Shown here: one piece after another, positions 34,841-44,711 of the stretch
Layout: each line of letters begins with the position of its first letter
Position numbering within the stretch: the first letter of the stretch is position 1
NCBI GenBank assembly: GCA_965261975.1
Contig: CBDHEC010000050.1
Coordinates: 11,107 to 75,106 of the forward strand
Direction: 5' to 3'
Length of the DNA stretch: 64,000 nucleotides
Source: Alphaproteobacteria bacterium
GTDB lineage: Bacteria; Pseudomonadota; Alphaproteobacteria; UBA6615
Position numbers and translations under genes: made by a program
Notes under the pieces: model-generated
What the model was told of the DNA's origin: nothing
The model's input: the letters and a program-made list of their open reading frames with translations, nothing else
Database searches by the model: none

Positions 34841-35767
34841 TCAGCCCATCAGGGCGCCCACATGGGCAGCCGCAGATTCGCCCAAGGCCGTCAGATCGTA
34901 GCCCCCTTCGAGAGTCGACACGACCCGACCGTCACATACGGCTTCCGCCAAGCGGCGCAGTTCCTCTGTCGCCCAGACAAAGTCCTCCGTCTCAAGCGAC
35001 AGCTGCGCCAGCGGATCTCGGCGATGCGCATCGAAACCGGCCGAGATCAAAATCAGGTCCGGCCCGAAATTCCGCATGGCCGGCAAAACCACGTCACGCA
35101 TCGCGGTCCGAAAATCATCCGACCCCGCGCCGGGCCATAGCGGCGCATTGGCGATATTGCCATGTGCACCGGTTTCATTCTTGTCGCCCGTGCCCGGATA
35201 GAGCGGCCATTGATGGGTCGAGGCGTAGAACAGCCCCGGCTCGTTCCAGAACATGGCCTGGGTGCCGTTGCCATGATGGACGTCGAAATCCATCACGGCG
35301 ACACGTTCCGCCCCATGTGCCACGCGCGCATGCTCGGCACCGATCGCCACGCTGTTGAACAGGCAGAAGCCCATCCCCTGGCTCGGCTCGGCATGGTGCC
35401 CCGGCGGCCGCATGGCGCAGAAGGCATTGTCGGCCGCACCTGACATCACCGCGTCGACCGCCTCCACCATGGCGCCCGCGGCGCGCAGCGCCGCCTCGCC
35501 GGATTTTGGCGACATGAGTGTGTCGGCATCGATCCGGCTAACCCCCTCGGTCGGCACCAGATCGAACACCCTGGCCACATAGTCTTCCGGATGTACCAGG
35601 GTCAGATGTTCGCGCCTCGCCTCAGCGGGAGTGTGGCGTTCGAGACCATCGAAGGCGGGGGCCGCCAGGACCTCGGCGATCGTGCGCAATCGGTCGGGTG
35701 ATTCCGGGTGTCCCGATGCGGGTTCATGTTCGATGCAGACCGGGTGGAAATAGAAGCGGGTCGTCAT
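34841..35767 (-). CDS. Histone deacetylase family protein
   Basis: HPESPDRL, RPPGHHAE, GFCLFN, DFDVHHGNGT, SAGFDAH, LEGGY. Confidence 0.95.
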   Translation of the reverse strand: MTTRFYFHPVCIEHEPASGHPESPDRLRTIAEVLAAPAFDGLERHTPAEARREHLTLVHPEDYVARVFDLVPTEGVSRIDADTLMSPKSGEAALRAAGAMVEAVDAVMSGAADNAFCAMRPPGHHAEPSQGMGFCLFNSVAIGAEHARVAHGAERVAVMDFDVHHGNGTQAMFWNEPGLFYASTHQWPLYPGTGDKNETGAHGNIANAPLWPGAGSDDFRTAMRDVVLPAMRNFGPDLILISAGFDAHRRDPLAQLSLETEDFVWATEELRRLAEAVCDGRVVSTLEGGYDLTALGESAAAHVGALMG

Positions 35768-35893
35768 GCGCCGACTCCGGATTGATTGGGCATGGCGCCA
35801 TTGTAACGGCCGGAACGCCATGGCGACAGGGACGCGATTTGCACCCTAGCCGTTGGCGAAATTGTGACAAACAGCACGGCTATATCGGTCTTA

Positions 35894-35927
35894 GCCAATT
35901 GACATATATTGGCGCGCGGCGTGTTCT
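35894..35927 (+). promoter_or_regulatory. Candidate sigma70 promoter of the RND operon with overlapping palindrome
   Basis: TTGACA at 35899-35904, 17-bp spacer, TGTTCT at 35922-35927. GCCAAT-N8-ATTGGC (35894-35913) overlaps the -35 element. Confidence 0.45.
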
Positions 35928-35986
35928 CCTCGCCAATAGTGCAACCGACGTGTACAGCACCGTATCGTTCCTGGAGATGTTACGTG

Positions 35987-37576
35987 ATGAACGCTCGAAA
36001 ACTTCGAACCGCAACCCTCCCCGGCGCGGCCATATTCGTAGCGGGTGCGTTATTCACCGCGCCCGCCCTGGCCCAGACACCCGAGCTTTCGGGTCCCGCC
36101 CAGGCACTCGATACCAACAGTAACGGGTTGATCGAACGCGCAGAGGCGCGCGGCCCGGCGGCCGCCAATTTCGACACGATCGACCTGGACAAGAGCGACA
36201 CCCTCGACGGCAACGAACTTCGCCACTTCTTCGCCGGTGGCCCCCGGCCCGAACCCAGGACCGCTGCCGCCAGCACGCCCGCCGAACCACTTGCCGGACC
36301 GGCGGTGGCAATGGATGCCAACAGCAACGGAACCATTGAGAAGAACGAGGCCCAGGGGCCGGCTGCATCCAACTTCGATACGATTGATCTCGACAAGAGC
36401 GGCACCCTCGACGGGTCGGAACTGCGCTACTTCTTCCGGGGCGGCGAACGCCCCGGCGGCCCGGCGAAGGCCGACAACGCAGACGCAAAACCCTCGGGCG
36501 GCGCGCCGGGTGGACCGCCACCTGCGCGCGTTGTTCTCGACAAGGTCATCGAAGAGCGGATCGGCCAGACCACCCCCGTCGTGGGCCGTATCGTGGCCCA
36601 ACAATCCGGGCCGATCGCCGCGCGCATCGGCGGCGCGGTTGTGGAAATGCGGGTGGACGTCGGCGACCGGGTCGCGACCGGTGACGTGCTGGCGCAGATC
36701 GACCGCGAACGCATGCAGCTCGAGCGCGACCGTTACGCCGCCATCGTGTCGCAGCAGCGCGCCAACCTGACGGCCGAACGCGCCGACCTCGAGCAGACCC
36801 AGAACGAACTGGACCGCCTGGAGGGCATTCGTAAATCGGCCGCCTTCTCGCAGGCCCGCTTTGAAGATGCGGTCCAGGCCGTTGCGTCCCAGACCGGCTC
36901 GGTCGCCGAAACGCGCGCCCAGTTGGCGCAGGCACAAGCCCAGCTGAAGCGTGCCGACCGAGACCTGACGGACACCGAGATTCGCGCGCCCTACCCCGGG
37001 GTAATCAGCGAGACACACACCGAAATCGGCGCGTATCTGTCGATCGGCAACCCGGTCGCAACCATCATCAACGACCTGAATCTGGAGGTCGAGGCGGACG
37101 TTCCGACCGCCCGGGTCACAAATCTGAGCGACGGGGATGTGGTGAACATCCGAATTCGCGACGGGCAGACCATTCCGGCGACCTTGCGCGCGGTCGTGCC
37201 GGTCGAGAATCCCCGGACCCGGACCCGGCCGGTGCGTTTCACGCCTGATTTTGCCGGCCTGGACGTACCCCTGGCCGACAACCAGAGCGTGACGGTCCTG
37301 CTCCCGGTTGGTGGATCGCGTGATGCCGTCACCGTATCCAAGGATGCGGTCACCCAACGCAACGGACAAAGCATGGTGTTTGTCTCGAACAACGGGCGCG
37401 CCCAGCCGCGCCCCGTGACGACAGGCGAGGCGACCGGCAGCCGGCTCGTCGTGATATCGGGCCTGAAGGTCGGCGACCAGGTCGTGGTGCGCGGCAATGA
37501 GCGGCTGCGTCCCGGCCAGCGCCTCCAGGATGTGGGGGCCAACGGCGGCGCGACGAACGGCAGCGGCGGGGGCTGA
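35987..37576 (+). CDS. RND efflux periplasmic adaptor (MFP) with N-terminal tandem EF-hand pairs
   Basis: GGAG RBS; signal peptide ending PALA-Q; four EF loops; then the MFP: VDVGDRVATGDVLAQID, alpha-hairpin, IRAPYPGVI, VEADVP, TRTRPVR, GLKVGDQVVVRG. Confidence 0.9.
   Translation: MNARKLRTATLPGAAIFVAGALFTAPALAQTPELSGPAQALDTNSNGLIERAEARGPAAANFDTIDLDKSDTLDGNELRHFFAGGPRPEPRTAAASTPAEPLAGPAVAMDANSNGTIEKNEAQGPAASNFDTIDLDKSGTLDGSELRYFFRGGERPGGPAKADNADAKPSGGAPGGPPPARVVLDKVIEERIGQTTPVVGRIVAQQSGPIAARIGGAVVEMRVDVGDRVATGDVLAQIDRERMQLERDRYAAIVSQQRANLTAERADLEQTQNELDRLEGIRKSAAFSQARFEDAVQAVASQTGSVAETRAQLAQAQAQLKRADRDLTDTEIRAPYPGVISETHTEIGAYLSIGNPVATIINDLNLEVEADVPTARVTNLSDGDVVNIRIRDGQTIPATLRAVVPVENPRTRTRPVRFTPDFAGLDVPLADNQSVTVLLPVGGSRDAVTVSKDAVTQRNGQSMVFVSNNGRAQPRPVTTGEATGSRLVVISGLKVGDQVVVRGNERLRPGQRLQDVGANGGATNGSGGG
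36086..36436 (+). repeat. Intragenic direct repeat, 2 x 147 bp (49 aa), at 36086-36232 and 36290-36436
   Basis: LSGPAQALDTNSNGLIERAEARGPAAANFDTIDLDKSDTLDGNELRHFF versus LAGPAVAMDANSNGTIEKNEAQGPAASNFDTIDLDKSGTLDGSELRYFF. Confidence 0.92.
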
Positions 37577-37581
37577 TCGCG

Positions 37582-40500
37582 ATGAACCTGATCTCCGCGT
37601 CCATTCACCGGCCGATCGCGGTTATCGCCGTCGTCATCATGATCATCATGTTCGGCTGGGTGGCGCTGCAGCGCATCCCCATCCAGCTGGCACCGGACGT
37701 ACGCCAGCCGGTGATCATCGTCGACACCTTCTGGCCGGGTGCGTCGCCGCTTGAGGTCGAACGCGAGATCGTCAACCGCCAGGAAGAAGTTCTCAAGGGG
37801 ATCGAGGGTGTGCGCAAGATCGAGAGCCGCGCGCGCACCGGACGCGCGGATATCACGCTCGAGTTTGCGCCGAGCCAGAACATGGACCGCGCGCTTTTGC
37901 TGGTGGCAAACCGGCTCGACCGGGTGAGCGGGTATCCCGAGGAAACCGACGAGCCGACCCTGCGCACGTCGGGCACCGACGACAATCCGATCGCCTGGTT
38001 CGTCCTGCGCCGGCAGGCCGAGAATGACCGGGATCTCCTGACCTATGGCGATTTCCTCGAAGACGTTGTCCAGGAGCGGATCGAACGCATCCCGGGAATC
38101 TCCGGCGTCAACATATTCGGAGAGACCGAACGCGAGATGCGGGTCATCATCGATCCCGAGCAGCTCGCCCAGTTCCGCCTGACAATCGGCGATGTCGTGG
38201 AACGGCTGCGCGCCGAGAATGCTTCGATCTCGGGCGGTGACGTCGAAGAGGGCAAACGCGCCTATGTTGTGCGCACCGAGGGCGATTTCACCACGCCTGA
38301 ACAGGTTCTCGACGTTGTGCTGCGCTCGGATGCCGGGCAGGCGGACGGCCAGATCGGCCGGATCACACTCCGCGATATCGCCCATGTCGAACTCGGTTAC
38401 AAGGAGGCGCGGGCGCTCCCTCACAGGTTTGACGAACGCGCCATGGCATTCAACATGACCCGCGAACAGGGGGCCAACGTCCTGACGGTGATGGACCAGG
38501 TACATCGTGTCGTCGGCGACCTTGCCGAAGGGCCGCTCAACCGGGTCGGCCTGATCGTCGAGAACGTGTTCGACGAGACACTGTATGTGAATTCGGCCAT
38601 CTCCCTGGTGCAGCAAAACATTATCGTCGGCGGCATTCTCGCCGCCCTGATCCTGATGCTGTTCCTGCGATCATGGCGCCCGACCCTCGTTGTTTCGCTT
38701 GCAATTCCGGTCTCGGTGATTGGTTCCTTCGTGGCCATGGCCGCCCTCGGTCGCTCCCTCAACGTCATCAGCCTGGCGGGCATCGCCTTCGCCGTCGGCA
38801 TGGTCGTCGATGCCGCGATCGTCGTGCTCGAGAACATCTTCCGACTGCGCCAGGAGGGTCACTCCCGCGCCGAAGCGGCGCGCCTGGGTGCCTCGCAAGT
38901 GTGGCCGGCCGTGCTCGTGTCGTCCCTGACCACCGTCATGGTGTTCATCCCGATCCTGGTCATGGAGCTCGAGGCCGGACAGCTGTTCCGGGATATCGCG
39001 GTCGCGATCTCCGTCTCCGTCCTTCTGTCGTTGCTGGTCTCGGTGACCGTTATTCCTGCGCTCGCCAACCGCCTGCTCGTGAACAGCGTGGCCGATGGCA
39101 AGAAAGCAACGCGCATCCCCGTCCTCGATGATTTCGCCCACGGGTTCGTGACCTTCTGGCAGGATTTCACCCGGATGGTCGTGCGATCGAAATTGCGTGC
39201 GCTGGTCGTTGTCGGCGCCATCACGCTCGCATCTGGCGCGTTCACCTGGGCCTTCGCACCGAAGCTCGATTACCTGCCGACCGGCAACCGCAATTTCGTG
39301 TTCGGCTTCGTGAACGTGCCGCCGGGATACAATCTCGACACGGTCACCGAGATCACCGAGCGCATCGCGAATCGCACCCGCAGCCTCTGGGCATCGGAGA
39401 CAGGCCCCGAATCCGAGGCCGGTGAACCGCCAAAGTTCCAGCGCTTCATCCGCGTACCCTTTGCCGGCCGCGCCTTCATCGGTGGAACATCCGTCGACCC
39501 GAGCCGTGCCTCGGAGCTGATCCCGGTCCTGCAGAACGCGGGGCGACAGGACCCGGGCGTGCTCACCTTCCCGAGCCAGCCCTCGCTGTTTGGCCGCTCA
39601 CTGGGCAGCGGCCGCACCATCGACGTCGACATTCGCGGGTCGGACCTCGAGCAGATTTACCAAGTCGCCTTCGATGTCTTTATCCGCCTGGCACCCCGCT
39701 TCCCGTTCAGTGACGGCAATCAGGTCCGGCCGATCCCGAGCCTGACCTTGTCCGCACCCGAGGTCCGGGTCGAACCGAACCGCCTGCAACTCGCCGACAA
39801 TGGCCTGTCGGCCCGTGCACTCGGCCAGGCCGTCGACGCCTTCAATGACGGTTTGCGGGTCGCCGAAATAACGGTCGACGGCAAGCGGATTGACCTGACG
39901 CTGACCGGCCCGCCCAACATTATCGATCAAACCCAGGGAATCGGTTCTCTGCCGGTCGTGACCCGGGACGGTCGCATCGTGCCGGTCGAGGGGCTTGCCG
40001 ACGTAAAAATCACCTCGGGCCCGACCGAGGTCAGGCGCGCCGACCGCGCGCGTACGGTACGGCTACAGGTCCGCCCGAACGCGGATACACCGTTACAGGG
40101 CGCATTCGAGCTTATTCAGGAAGAAATCGTCAAACCCATGGAAGAAGCGGGCCTGCCCGAAGGGGTCAGTATCCGGCTGACCGGTACGGCCGACAAGTTG
40201 CTGGAAACCTGGAACGAACTGGTCATCGATCTGATTCTGGCGATCGTGATCGTCTATCTGGTGATGGCCGTCCTGTTCGAGAGCTTTATCTATCCGCTGA
40301 TCATCATGCTCACCGTCCCCGTCGCCGCAGCCGGCGGTATCGCGGGGCTGGCGCTATTGAACATCTGGGTTCTGCAGCCCCTCGACATGCTGACAATGCT
40401 GGGATTCGTAATCCTGACCGGAATCGTCGTGAACAATGCGATTCTGCTCGTCCACCAGACCCTCTATCACATACGCGAAGATGGCATGACGGCAGATGAT

Positions 40501-40764
40501 GCGATCATGCTGGCGACCCAGAACCGGGTCCGGCCGATCTTCATGTCCACGCTCACCTCGGTGTTCGGGATGTTGCCGCTGGTCGTGTTCCCCGGTGCCG
40601 GCTCGGAGCTTTATCGCGGGTTGGGTTCGGTCGTGCTGGGCGGTCTTTCGCTATCGGCCGTCCTCACCCTGGCAATCGTGCCGCCGATGATGTCGATCAC
40701 CGTCGGCTGGCGTGAACGAAACCGTAACAATGAGGTGGACGCGAGCCCGTCGCCCGCATCCTAG
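37582..40764 (+). CDS. RND efflux permease (AcrB/AcrD/AcrF family)
   Basis: 1060 aa; PGASPLEVE, AIPVSVIG, GMVVDAAIVVLENI, LFESFIYPLIIMLTVP, GIVVNNAILLV, RPIFMSTLT. Confidence 0.96.
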   Translation: MNLISASIHRPIAVIAVVIMIIMFGWVALQRIPIQLAPDVRQPVIIVDTFWPGASPLEVEREIVNRQEEVLKGIEGVRKIESRARTGRADITLEFAPSQNMDRALLLVANRLDRVSGYPEETDEPTLRTSGTDDNPIAWFVLRRQAENDRDLLTYGDFLEDVVQERIERIPGISGVNIFGETEREMRVIIDPEQLAQFRLTIGDVVERLRAENASISGGDVEEGKRAYVVRTEGDFTTPEQVLDVVLRSDAGQADGQIGRITLRDIAHVELGYKEARALPHRFDERAMAFNMTREQGANVLTVMDQVHRVVGDLAEGPLNRVGLIVENVFDETLYVNSAISLVQQNIIVGGILAALILMLFLRSWRPTLVVSLAIPVSVIGSFVAMAALGRSLNVISLAGIAFAVGMVVDAAIVVLENIFRLRQEGHSRAEAARLGASQVWPAVLVSSLTTVMVFIPILVMELEAGQLFRDIAVAISVSVLLSLLVSVTVIPALANRLLVNSVADGKKATRIPVLDDFAHGFVTFWQDFTRMVVRSKLRALVVVGAITLASGAFTWAFAPKLDYLPTGNRNFVFGFVNVPPGYNLDTVTEITERIANRTRSLWASETGPESEAGEPPKFQRFIRVPFAGRAFIGGTSVDPSRASELIPVLQNAGRQDPGVLTFPSQPSLFGRSLGSGRTIDVDIRGSDLEQIYQVAFDVFIRLAPRFPFSDGNQVRPIPSLTLSAPEVRVEPNRLQLADNGLSARALGQAVDAFNDGLRVAEITVDGKRIDLTLTGPPNIIDQTQGIGSLPVVTRDGRIVPVEGLADVKITSGPTEVRRADRARTVRLQVRPNADTPLQGAFELIQEEIVKPMEEAGLPEGVSIRLTGTADKLLETWNELVIDLILAIVIVYLVMAVLFESFIYPLIIMLTVPVAAAGGIAGLALLNIWVLQPLDMLTMLGFVILTGIVVNNAILLVHQTLYHIREDGMTADDAIMLATQNRVRPIFMSTLTSVFGMLPLVVFPGAGSELYRGLGSVVLGGLSLSAVLTLAIVPPMMSITVGWRERNRNNEVDASPSPAS

Positions 40765-40809: not shown

Positions 40810-41509
40810 ATGAGCGCATCCGGAAACAGCCTCGCAGAAATCCCGTTCCTCGCGCCGCTGAGCGAGTCATCTCGCGCCGCGCTCGAGCAGCGCGCGCGCT
40901 GGGTCCGTTATACGGCCAATGACACAATCATCGACCGCGAGAGCGAATCCCGGGACGTGTTTTTCGTGGTCGAAGGCCGGGTGCGGGTGGTGAATTTCTC
41001 GATTTCCGGACGCGAGATCAGTTTCGACGAAATGGACCCCGGCGGGGTGTTCGGCGAACTCGCCGCACTCGACGGGATGCCGCGATCCGCCGCTGTTGTC
41101 GCACTGGCCGATACCCTCGTCGCGTCTATCTCGCCCGACACGTTCCTGAACCTGCTGCGCGACCACCCGGACCTCGCCATCGGAGTGATGCAGGAACTGG
41201 CAAAGATCGTGCGAGCATCGACCGAACGCATCATGGACCTGAGCACCCTGGGTGCGCTCAACCGGGTGCATTCGGAGATCCTGCGCGAAGCGCGCGCCCA
41301 TGCCGAGGACGGCGCCAACACCGCCCGCATCACGCCCATCCCGGTACATGCGGATATTGCCGCGCGGGTCAGCACGACCCGCGAGACGGTTGCGCGCGTC
41401 CTGACGCGATCTCACCAAACAAGGTTTGGTCAAACGCGAGAAAAATGCCCTCGCCATCCTCGACCTCGAACGTCTCGAGGACCTTGTTGAGGAAGTTCGG
41501 GACTTTTAA
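40810..41509 (+). CDS. Crp/Fnr family cyclic-nucleotide-binding regulator, frameshift near 41405
   Basis: FGELAALDGMPRSA cNMP pocket; HTH HADIAARVSTTRETVARVL. Removing one base restores (S)DLTKQGLVKREKNALAILDLERLEDLVEEVRDF and a stop at 41509. Confidence 0.9.
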
Positions 41510-41851: not shown

Positions 41852-43318
41852 TCAGAATGTCCAGCGGCGGTTGAGCCCGATCGACAACCGATAATTGTTG
41901 TAGGTGTAGTTCGTGATCGATGAGACCTGTCGATACGCCTCACCACCGAATGTGAAGGTGAAAGGCTCCCAGAATTCGCCCGCATCGGTAAACACGCTGC
42001 CCCACGGAATACCGTAGGTCAGCCGTGCACGCCCGCCCTAGTCACGCCGCTTCCGCGAGCTGATCGACGGGTCGCGATCATCATACTGGTCGTAGTTGAC
42101 GGTGAGCGATGTGAGCAAGAAATCGCCACCGCCGAACAACATCGTATGGCTTACCCCGAGGTCGCTCTGTTCGGAGGAATTGAAACTGCGGGCCGCAATA
42201 TTTCGGGTCTGTGTAAACGTGACCCCCTGCCGCTGCCGCGGGGTCAGAATCTGAGACATTCCCAACTTGCCTTCATACTCACGGCCGCTGCGTTCCGTCG
42301 CGGTCAGGCTGTTGGTGATGTTGTTGTAGGACTGATACTTCATCGTCGCACCGGCGAAGACCGACCAGGTGTTGGACAGCGCATAGACCCAGTCGACCGT
42401 CGCGCCCGCCGCCGTCAGATACTTCTCGCGCGAAAGATCAATGCGCTCGTAGAGAAGGCGCGGCGTGATGGTCGACGGCGCAAAGTCCAGTTCGTATCCG
42501 AAGTCCGCGGTGATGGCGCGCAGATCGAGATCATCCTGCTGAATCTGTTCGCCCTGGTACAAAACCAGCCCACCCAGCATCTTGTGCTGCTTCTGCAGGC
42601 CGAGGTCATGCTCGAATGACAGCTGCGCCAAACCGTTCAGCGCCAAATCGTCCTGACGCGAAGAACTGCCGGTCGTGCGGGTCGGCAAATCGGCGGCGAG
42701 GCGAATCTCTGATTTCGGGGACGCGTTGCGGTTCCAGTCATACTGGGTGGCAAAATTCATCGCGAAGGTGAAGATCGTCTTCTTGCGGCGTGACGCGATC
42801 TGATCGAGATACTGATCGATCTGGCGGCGCAGTTTCGGATCCAGTTCAAGTTCCTTCAGCGAGACCAGTTCACGCTCGGCCTCGTCGAGGTTATCGAGAC
42901 GAAAAAGGACGATCGCGAACAGAACCCGCACGACCGCCAGGTCCGGGCGGATCAGAAGAACACGTTCCAGCGTCGCGCCCGCACCGCGCACATTTCCGTC
43001 GCGGATCTGGGTCAACGCATACCGGACATTGAGTTCGATATTGTCGGGGTCTTCCAGGACCTGCTGGTACGTGACCGGTGGCCCTTTGCTGAAGGCCTCC
43101 AGATCGAGTGCGTCCTGGGCCGTGCGGTCGACCTCGCGCTGGGACTCGATCGATTCCCGGACATCGGTTTCACGCGATTCCGTATCCGACTGCTGGGCAT
43201 GCGCAGGCCACGCGATCATGATCGCGCCGACAATCACCCATCCATAGCGGATACCGCACCGCGCGTGCTGAAACACACGCAATGGCAGACTTGGCACTCG
43301 AACCAACGAAACCCCCAA
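41852..43318 (-). CDS. TPR + beta-barrel outer membrane protein (Slam/DUF560/NsrA-like) with internal TAG at 42038-42040
   Basis: Signal peptide (PAHA-QQ), TPR (ATLERVLLIRPD...), YDWNRN, alternating beta-strands. The frame continues past the TAG for 61 codons and ends YRLSIGLNRRWTF, a BAM beta-signal. Start uncertain. Confidence 0.8.
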
Positions 43319-43389: not shown

Positions 43390-44711
43390 TCATTTCATTT
43401 CTGCGACGTGAACGCCTTTCCAATCCTCGGGCGGGGGATCGAAGGAGTAGTGGAAAATACGCTCGGCATAGAGATCATAGAAACCCGTAATAGCCCCGGG
43501 CATTTCCACGCAAACATTGAGCAGGTCCTGCGCCTTGTCCCAGTCGCGGGCCCGATAGGCATCGAGCATACGCACATGCTCGCGTTGCAAGGCCTGAAAT
43601 GCCTCGCTGGCCGCCTCGCGGGCATCCCCCACCAACGCATAAATGCGAACCGCCTCTCGCTTGCCCTTTACGGCGATCAGGTCGAGCTCAAGGAAGGCGA
43701 AACTGTCGGCCACCTGAGATTGCGTGGATTCACCGACAATTATCGGCGTCGCATAGGGCTGTGACTGCCCTTCAAGCCGGGCGGCGAGATTGACCGCATC
43801 GCCGAGCACCGAATAGTCGAAACGCTGATCCGACCCCATATTCCCGACAACGCATTCCCCGGTGTTGAGCCCAACCCCAACCGCTATGGCAACCGCATCA
43901 GGATTTTCCGCGAGGCGCGCCTCATTGACCCGATCGAGCGCGTCCAGCATGGCCAACGCGGCATCACAGGCATGGGCGGCGTGTGCCGGATCGTCAATCG
44001 GCGCATTCCAGAACGCCATGATGCAGTCGCCCATATACTTGTCGATGGTGCCGTCGCGATCCAGGATTTCGGCGGTCAGCGGCGTGAGCAGGCGGTTGAT
44101 CAGGGTTGTCAGCGCCTGCGGATCATCACGATGTTCCTCGGAAATGGATGTGAACCCCCGGATATCGCAGAACAGCAATGTCATCTCACGGGTCTCGCCA
44201 CCCAGCCTGAGCCGTTCGGGCTGATCGGCAAGCTGTTCGACCAGCGCCGGCGACAGATACTGCCCGAAGGCCGTGCGAATCTGGCGGCGCTGCGTTTCGG
44301 ATTGCAGATAGGTGATGAGCGAACTCGACAGATAGACCATCAGCACAACCAGCGCCGGAAATACCGGGTCAATCAGAATTCCGGCGCCGGAAAAAGCGAA
44401 CCACCCCGCCGCCACCCCGGCCGTGATCGCCGCCAGGCATACAACCGCACTGGCCGCGACACCGAGTTTGGGAAGCAAAAGCACCAGAAAAATACCCAGC
44501 AGCGCGAATGCCGCCAGTTCCGCACCCAGGGTCCAGTCGGGACGCGTCAGAAAACTGCCGTTCAGGATCTGCTCGACCAGCTCTGCATGGAAATCGACCC
44601 AAACACGATCAGCGTCGTCACGCTCAAACGATCCGTGGCATGATCTGTCTGGGCGGCCGTATCATCCTCCGCGGTCATCTGTTCGCGTTTCGGGACAAAC
44701 CCGTTCCCCAT
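43390..44711 (-). pseudogene. CHASE2-type adenylate cyclase lacking most of the CHASE2 sensor
   Basis: HAELVEQILNGSFLTRPDW (CHASE2 end), three TM segments, RTAFGQYLSPALVEQL, LFCDIRGFT, DKYMGDCIMAFWNAP, RFDYSVLGDAVNLAARLEG. The upstream frame hits a stop, and the plausible N-terminus is out of frame. Confidence 0.8.

Follow-up and report, generated by a model that had tools for sequence, protein, structure and literature searches.

What are EF-hands doing on the periplasmic adaptor of an efflux pump? The question arises from a two-gene resistance-nodulation-division (RND) pump locus at positions 35987-40764 of a 64,000-nucleotide stretch of alphaproteobacterial DNA (the window, throughout), for which an initial annotation had proposed four EF-hand loops on the adaptor and a CusB-like role in sensing metal for the pump or delivering metal to it. 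We find that the pump is a two-gene, TriAB/MexJ-like RND system whose adaptor carries two EF-hand-pair modules on disordered Pro/Ala/Gly tethers. As for their role, the explanation that we favor, with a confidence only modestly above even, is that the EF-hands form a portable accessory loaded with Ca2+, as opposed to a feeder that supplies metal to this particular pump. The parts of the pump locus are listed here, with residue numbers counted along the adaptor.

35973..35976, + strand: likely ribosome-binding site, GGAG, read directly, 10 nucleotides 5' of the adaptor ATG at 35987
35987-37576, + strand: RND adaptor gene, an open reading frame (ORF) of 529 residues
35987..36076, + strand: signal peptide, residues 1-30, with a basic start, a 19-residue hydrophobic stretch and ALA-Q; predicted local distance difference test (pLDDT) score <50 for residues 1-31
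36086..36241, + strand: first EF-hand pair (unit 1), residues 34-85; its loops, 36110-36145 and 36182-36217, have 12 residues between them; a lobe in the AlphaFold2 (AF2) model
36242..36289, + strand: inter-unit linker, residues 86-101, Pro/Ala-rich; pLDDT <50 for residues 91-98
36290..36445, + strand: second EF-hand pair (unit 2), residues 102-153; its loops are 36314-36349 and 36386-36421; a DNA repeat of unit 1
36446..36520, + strand: Gly/Pro/Ala-rich tether to the core, residues 154-178; pLDDT <50 for residues 158-175
36521..37576, + strand: adaptor core, residues 179-529 plus stop, with membrane-proximal, beta-barrel and lipoyl domains and an alpha-hairpin
36704-36970, + strand: alpha-hairpin of the core in the AF2 model, helices 240-280 and 289-328 (two 40-residue helices)
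37582-40764, + strand: RND permease gene, 1060 residues, starting 5 nucleotides past the adaptor stop and translationally close-coupled to it

The four loops (residues 42-53, 66-77, 110-121 and 134-145) all have ligand residues at positions 1, 3, 5 and 12, Gly at position 6 and a hydrophobic residue at position 8, and the pattern quoted for them in the initial annotation is borne out both by Pfam models and by a regular-expression control. The Pfam scores reach their cut-offs (given in brackets) for EF-hand_6 at 37.8 bits (25), EF-hand_1 at 35.3 (25.4), EF-hand_7 at 32.9 (30) and EF-hand_5 at 25.9 (25.9), with residues 130-151 giving the best stretches. Loops 2 and 4 agree with a strict 13-position EF-hand pattern of the PROSITE type, which loops 1 and 3 miss at the 13th position only. 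As a control for chance, a looser loop expression was run on six-frame translations. Its four matches among the 127,996 residues from the window are precisely the four loops, and the 6.06 million residues from the whole genome hold 42 matches.

Units 1 and 2 align over 55 residues, and their DNA contains 109-nucleotide copies that are 75% alike and lie 204 nucleotides (68 codons) apart, from which Tandem Repeats Finder reported no array. The two repeats first described are thus real, with the correction that they are not 49 residues long, the conserved core measuring 52-55 residues and the period 68. The linkers across the family are 58% Ala, Pro and Gly together, and the tether to the core ranges from 9 to 42 residues with a median of 28 in the 23 relatives having both anchor motifs. 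The adaptor start is supported by close homologues, which begin with the same first residues. No Cys occurs anywhere in the protein, so that, as had been claimed for its signal peptide, the adaptor is Cys-free and has no lipobox.

What follows the tethers is a complete adaptor, again as first described. The TIGR01730 model matches residues 186-513 at 196.6 bits against a cut-off of 94.9, and in the AF2 model the core adopts the full four-domain adaptor fold with a pLDDT mostly above 85. Foldseek places the adaptor with AcrA (1e-26), MacA (7.4e-26) and MexA (5.4e-25), and with TMexC within the range 1e-26 to 5e-25; the nearest solved sequences to the core are the TriA-TriB fusion 6vej_P (4.6e-36) and MexJ 20yy_D (4.5e-23). 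The full-length model has a pLDDT of 79.2, and its disordered segments are residues 1-31, 91-98 and 158-175.

An AF2 model of the N-terminal 143 residues, built with 22 homologues (pLDDT 77.7), shows two separate lobes (7-59 and 76-127, numbered along the fragment) with a linker of low confidence between them. Each lobe has the helix-loop-helix pairing of an EF-hand pair and matches EF-hand pair domains in VIA-align at modest scores, Z 5.5-5.6: the unit 1 lobe aligns with the EF-hand pair domain 4zcu_A (Z 5.5, root-mean-square deviation 2.0 over 51 residues) and the unit 2 lobe with polcalcin 5otj_C (Z 5.6, root-mean-square deviation 2.7 over 51 residues). A look-up in the ESM Atlas returned generic bacterial EF-hand clusters only, at 0.76, which is below the trustworthy level.

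That the EF-hands might be a chance motif, or the fusion a chimera of assembly, is suggested by the draft state of the genome (59 contigs, 3.03 Mb, 94.6% complete) and by the metagenome run that matches it best, X1, which is identical to the stretch and may be the source of the assembly. We give this explanation a negligible probability. Each of the marine metagenome runs X2 and X6, which belong to different studies, has a contig that spans positions 35900-37691 without a gap and with 194 substitutions. Among adaptor relatives (the best 80 of 538, one genome per species, to which all counts out of 80 refer), the loops lie inside the adaptor ORF at 35 loci, in many independent assemblies, with three units in one, two units in 22, one unit in 11 and a contig end cutting through the last; in a further locus (L015) a run of N stands where the units would sit. 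The loop expression, moreover, finds nothing else in the window. The artefact explanation is refuted by the conserved ORF architecture, the independent contigs and the expression control, and the fusion is real and conserved.

The same architecture is recovered when only residues 28-170 are used as the query. Among proteins of 290-926 residues, this search gave 42 protein clusters, about 40 of which are EF-plus-adaptor proteins of 433-598 residues. Within the GTDB order to which the window belongs, the gene is found in 40 of 46 genomes (E <= 1e-30). The match in 22 of these 40 begins at residue 102 or earlier and hence includes at least one unit, and one more (G015) is a partial match; the DNA around the other 17 matches contains one unit in nine cases and none in five, with three genomes (G013, G020 and G023, the last interrupted by a run of N) left unassigned. 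Units are thus carried by at least 31 of the 40 gene-bearing genomes of the order.

How the module is distributed over the family can be read from the permeases, since the permease adjoins the adaptor in 78 of the 80 loci. In a FastTree phylogeny of 69 permeases (68 loci and the window, the 12 loci lacking a full ORF having been left out), 33 rows of the EF-bearing clade, among them L015 with its run of N, are separated from 36 rows that lack the module by a branch with support 100. As the tree is unrooted, the split fits either a single gain or a single loss. Within the EF-bearing clade the number of units ranges from one to three among close relatives and requires 10 changes on this tree, against a possible minimum of 3. 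Divergent neighbors are kept on both sides of the split, namely dxs (37/80), ispA (40/80), xseB (40/80) and a histone-deacetylase-family gene (43/80).

The adaptors that lack the module have a similar Cys-free signal peptide that is followed directly by the core, and in two of them, L073 (7695-9200) and L079 (7572-9428), a different N-terminal insert occupies the same place. Rich in Gln, Arg and Lys, that insert is built from short helical repeats in which the motif '..ERQKFF' recurs, and it has no match in Pfam. Because EF-less orthologues pass straight from signal peptide to core and these two carry another insert at that point, the family has a permissive N-terminal site, at which the EF module is an accessory.

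Within the module itself, 55 distinct units from 35 proteins have ligand positions that are invariant or nearly so while the other positions vary freely, a conservation that is partly built in, since the expression defining a unit fixes the residue sets allowed. The consensus of loop A is D-x-N-x-N-G-x-[IVL]-[DE]-x-x-E, with D-x-N and the terminal E always present; the spacer between loops A and B reads A-x-G-P-x-x-x-N-F-D-x-[MI]; and the consensus of loop B is D-x-[DN]-K-[SN]-G-x-L-D-G-x-E, with L always at position 8 and E always at position 12. These alignments show that the ligand residues are under strong apparent constraint.

Among the units, a second clade has features of its own. A Cys stands at loop B position 2 in 32 of the 55 distinct units, and another follows FF-x-G-x-G. 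Units with Cys occur in P0011, P0012, P0013, P0026, P0027, P0053, P0063 and P0143 and at loci L017-L035, and the units of the window have none. The two Cys residues may form a periplasmic disulfide that staples the unit.

The module is not confined to RND adaptors. A HMMER search of 1.84 billion representatives gave 712 matches at E <= 0.001 (82 at E <= 1e-10), and in the best 150 of the 712 the adaptor core is present in 19 and absent from 131. Two units are joined to a Lactamase_B_2 (metallo-beta-lactamase-fold) domain in P0063 and one to the TRAP binding protein DctP in P0143, and many relatives of the module are stand-alone. The module is thereby shown to be portable, occurring on unrelated periplasmic proteins and by itself. 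A different, membrane-anchored HlyD-family adaptor of 617 residues (P0080) has three EF-hand pair units at its C-terminus, so that adaptors have acquired EF modules on no fewer than two occasions, at opposite termini.

Which metal would such loops bind? By sequence, the best PDB matches to the module are lanmodulin (LanM) chains (8fns_A at 3.9e-7, 6mi5_X at 5.4e-7), which align without a gap through the loop pair and its 12-residue spacer, and the LanM model NF053806 gives 55.5 bits, which falls short of its equivalog cut-off of 135. These matches speak for a lanmodulin-like, lanthanide-binding domain fused to an efflux pump, a reading that we regard as highly improbable. The operational definition of LanM given in the portion of PMC13128445 covered here is a protein of fewer than 200 residues with four EF-hands, of which one or more pairs must be separated by less than 14 residues. 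Such a filter would exclude fused forms; the adaptor has the four loops and the 12-residue spacers, and its 529 residues place it outside that length limit.

Pro at loop position 2 (Pro2) is a selectivity determinant according to the portions covered of PMC13172409 and PMC13128445, and the latter likens LanM-like proteins that lack Pro2 to ordinary Ca(II) EF-hand proteins. Pro2 is found in none of the four loops and none of the 55 distinct units, although an EF-hand protein with Thr at that position bound Nd and Y in vitro (PMC13172409, portion covered), which leaves lanthanide binding as such conceivable. A spacing of 11-14 residues between loops, for its part, is widespread in bacterial EF-hand proteins: it recurs throughout the best 150 representatives, any Pro2 appearing in only three of them.

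Loop A has only three carboxylates, and the genome contains no other match to the LanM model and no XoxF-type dehydrogenase (the best TIGR03075 score is 34 bits, with a cut-off of 480). Lanmodulin 8fns_A ranks 26th in VIA-align (Z 4.3), level with many EF-hand proteins, and the fold therefore cannot tell LanM from ordinary EF-hands. Membership in the lanmodulin family was rejected on model score, Pro2, length and the absence of lanthanide-use genes. Ca2+ would be a more likely ligand than the lanthanides, in keeping with the preference stated in the initial annotation and for the reasons of LanM score, missing Pro2 and missing LanM and XoxF-type genes.

The units might instead act as an antenna: in parallel with the CusB tail or the CusF-like domain fused to SilB, they would catch Ca2+ or cations resembling it (Cd2+, Pb2+, rare earths) in the periplasm, and the permease would receive and export these ions. 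The extension sits in the same topological position as the CusB tail, several units on long tethers would suit capture, and no other RND permease was found in the genome: in tblastn at E <= 1e-3 the permease query matches itself and one weak 103-residue stretch, so that it looks like the only permease of its kind there, and the EF module matches only itself. The single Asp in transmembrane helix 4 (TM4) of the permease, which may resemble that of CusA, would point the same way.

The scores of the pump proteins speak otherwise. The permease is an ACR_tran protein at family level (Pfam, 671.7 bits) and lies under the cut-off of every RND subfamily model of NCBIfam, including the heavy-metal RND model TIGR00914 (319.8 bits; cut-off 701.45) and, on the drug side, the HAE1 model TIGR00915 (414.9; cut-off 940) and NF033617 (577.1; cut-off 1250). 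The adaptor likewise remains far below the CzcB/NccB model TIGR00999 (121.1; cut-off 319.3) and the CusB model NF007303 (23.2; cut-off 390).

The proton relay of AcrB consists of an Asp-Asp pair in TM4 and a Lys in TM10. In the present permease the TM4 motif (38797-38835) has Asp-Ala where the nearest PDB chains, 8yr0_A and 7wlv_A, have Asp-Asp, and the TM10 motif (40420-40452) has Asn-Asn, the first Asn being aligned to an unlike residue of the nearest solved pumps that is presumably the relay Lys of AcrB. The TM4 and TM10 motifs are kept in 75 and 68 of the 80 loci, respectively, in EF-bearing and EF-less clades alike, which suggests that they are common to the whole family and mark a distinct RND subfamily.

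A comparison of the permease sites particular to the EF-bearing clade revealed no acidic, His or Met cluster specific to that clade. Only 18 of 1060 columns are clade-specific, with one acidic residue, no His or Cys and one Met (column 1037, beyond the two periplasmic ranges compared), and the composition of the periplasmic loops is alike in the EF-bearing and EF-less clades (Asp plus Glu 14.6% versus 14.0%; Met, His and Cys together 2.3% in both). With the model scores, this tells against CusB-like metal delivery. Pumps of the sister clade, with the same TM4 and TM10 motifs, do without the module, the number of units changes between one and three, and the module is portable, which together speak against the broader CusB-like role, sensing included, that had been proposed at the outset. 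We judge the handing of cations to the permease to be distinctly improbable.

In our favored explanation, the accessory module, each loop would bind Ca2+ through Asp1, Asn/Asp3, Asn/Ser5, Asp/Glu9 and the invariant, bidentate Glu12. Marine origin is indicated by the record titles of related loci and by the labels of the metagenome runs. Seawater contains about 10 mM Ca2+, a level both high and steady, and in such a setting ordinary EF-hands would be saturated; the modules would then be permanently Ca2+-loaded and folded. Their place would be the membrane-proximal end of an adaptor that is not lipidated, and there they would form a general Ca2+-stabilized appendage that adds bulk or solubility, or that helps in retention or spacing close to the inner membrane. 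The pump itself would probably export compounds of amphiphilic or hydrophobic character, using a TolC-like channel encoded at an unlinked site.

The same residues could serve a switch, in which the units fold only with Ca2+ and a disorder-to-order change in the tethers adjusts how the pump assembles or works to the Ca2+ level of the periplasm. Strict conservation of the ligand residues would fit such a switch, as would flexible tethers that put the units beside the membrane-proximal domain, the part of the adaptor that contacts the permease. There are also precedents: cation binding (Mg2+, Zn2+, Cu+ or Ag+) alters the conformation and efflux of the adaptors AcrA, ZneB and CusB, according to the portion of PMC13328181 covered here, and the stand-alone periplasmic EF-hand proteins EfhP and Caulobacter CaBP are described as Ca2+ sensors in the parts of the literature covered. 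Since the carriers are marine, however, a sensor of ordinary affinity would be saturated, and the copy number of the units differs among close relatives while the module also occurs on proteins unrelated to efflux. On balance a switch seems unlikely to us, less so than export of the cations themselves.

Several observations weigh against the accessory-module explanation. The conservation of the module across a GTDB order suggests that it matters for this pump, and its N-terminal place is the one where CusB bears its metal-binding tail. Portability argues for a general role and does not show the module to be inert for the pump. Ca2+ is a ligand proposed solely from the loop residues, and cleavage of the signal peptide after ALA is likewise predicted, from the ALA-Q that follows the 19-residue hydrophobic stretch. 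Structural support is modest, in that a Foldseek search of the two-unit model against the PDB returned nothing at E <= 0.001 and VIA-align against 48,161 chains gave seven chains at Z >= 5 and none at Z >= 8; the poor whole-model alignments arise because the two lobes have no fixed mutual position. The permease, finally, appears to have an unusual relay, with one Asp in TM4 and an Asn in TM10, which makes any assignment of its substrate tentative, and 'drug-type' would describe only its relative scores, all of which are below cut-off.

The outer-membrane component of the pump is probably encoded elsewhere. Matches to the outer-membrane factor family PF02321 are confined to contig C51, with none on the contig of the window (C50), in line with the initial statement that no such factor is encoded locally. 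The only clear TolC-like gene of the genome (locus L083, 1414-2692 on C51) lies beside a pcm-like methyltransferase gene and is split over two frames, a 365-residue ORF and the remainder of the second OEP repeat, with the shift at a short G run; the split may be a true frameshift or an assembly error.

The gene that follows the permease is:

40810..41490, + strand: Crp-like cyclic-nucleotide-binding regulator, 45 nucleotides 3' of the permease (cNMP_binding, 73.1 bits)

A Crp-like regulator has this position in only seven of the 80 loci and may join the pump unit only among the closest relatives. In the window the regulator is followed by a 426-residue TPR-containing ORF (42038-43318, - strand) and a class III nucleotide cyclase (43390-44484, - strand). 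In the other direction, the histone-deacetylase-family gene (34841-35821, - strand) lies divergently upstream of the pump. An ORF that, to judge from its motif, may encode a Sir2-type deacylase follows the permease in seven of 21 loci of the second EF clade (L018, L022, L025 and L030-L033), and the occurrence of two unrelated deacylase families beside one pump may be coincidence. A metal-related neighbor or a conserved local regulator was sought in the 21 loci of the second EF clade, which gave lineage-specific neighbors only. A scan of the stretch for sigma-70 promoters gave no sites, and terminator-like sites occur at chance level.

Of the components of tripartite efflux pumps, the adaptor is understood least, and the known cases of cation control, AcrA with Mg2+ and CusB with Cu+ or Ag+, have no dedicated sensor domain. 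An order of marine alphaproteobacteria with a Ca2+-type module on the adaptor of its seemingly single RND pump therefore offers a natural test, simple to dissect, of whether cations in the periplasm influence pump assembly, and a compact, portable, Sec-compatible EF-hand pair is of interest as a tag or metal-binding building block. Our literature searches found no description of an EF-hand-bearing RND adaptor; 'EF-hand' and 'calcium' are absent from the portion covered of a 2026 adaptor review (PMC13328181), as is 'EF-hand' from the portion covered of a 2021 Chem Rev review.

The boldest proposal would be that this is the first RND adaptor with a built-in receptor for Ca2+-family metals, in which occupancy by Ca2+, Cd2+ or rare earths gates pump assembly or the units feed ions to a permease with a non-canonical relay. 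We think it doubtful; were gating or feeding true, marine alphaproteobacteria would possess a tripartite pump of a new functional class. If the module is a general appendage only, the gain is one of annotation, with 'adaptor with EF-hand modules' replacing a generic database name.

Compared with known systems, the core is closest to the solved adaptors TriA/TriB and MexJ of the Pseudomonas aeruginosa TriABC and MexJK pumps, with which it shares a four-domain build and a long alpha-hairpin. The TriABC and MexJK operons, too, have no gene for an outer-membrane factor and use an unlinked channel. TriA/TriB and MexJ have no EF-hand module, unlike the present adaptor, which in turn has no lipobox and is paired with a permease that has one TM4 Asp and a TM10 Asn where the nearest solved pumps have two TM4 Asp residues.

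The CusB tail of CusCFBA is similar in that a metal-binding extension precedes the membrane-proximal domain of an RND adaptor that is not lipidated, the binding here being predicted. CusB, however, uses Met ligands for Cu+ and Ag+ and works with a heavy-metal RND partner, whereas the present loops are oxygen-based EF-hands in a portable module. SilB carries a fused CusF-like domain.

LanM (6mi5, 8fns) shares with the module its compact EF-hand pairs, 12-residue spacer and periplasmic export. It is a stand-alone protein of fewer than 200 residues, in contrast to the fused form described here, which has no Pro2 and is modeled as two independent lobes instead of a single bundle. EfhP of P. aeruginosa and CaBP of Caulobacter vibrioides are Sec-exported EF-hand proteins that the sources, in the parts covered, report to bind Ca2+; both are separate signaling proteins, whereas the module of the window is covalently attached to an efflux adaptor. 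AcrA, the conformation of which responds to Mg2+ and pH in the portion covered of bioRxiv 10.1101/2024.06.10.597921, illustrates that a divalent cation can tune an RND adaptor, yet it is lipid-anchored and has no dedicated metal-binding domain, whereas the adaptor described here is non-lipidated and carries a dedicated module.

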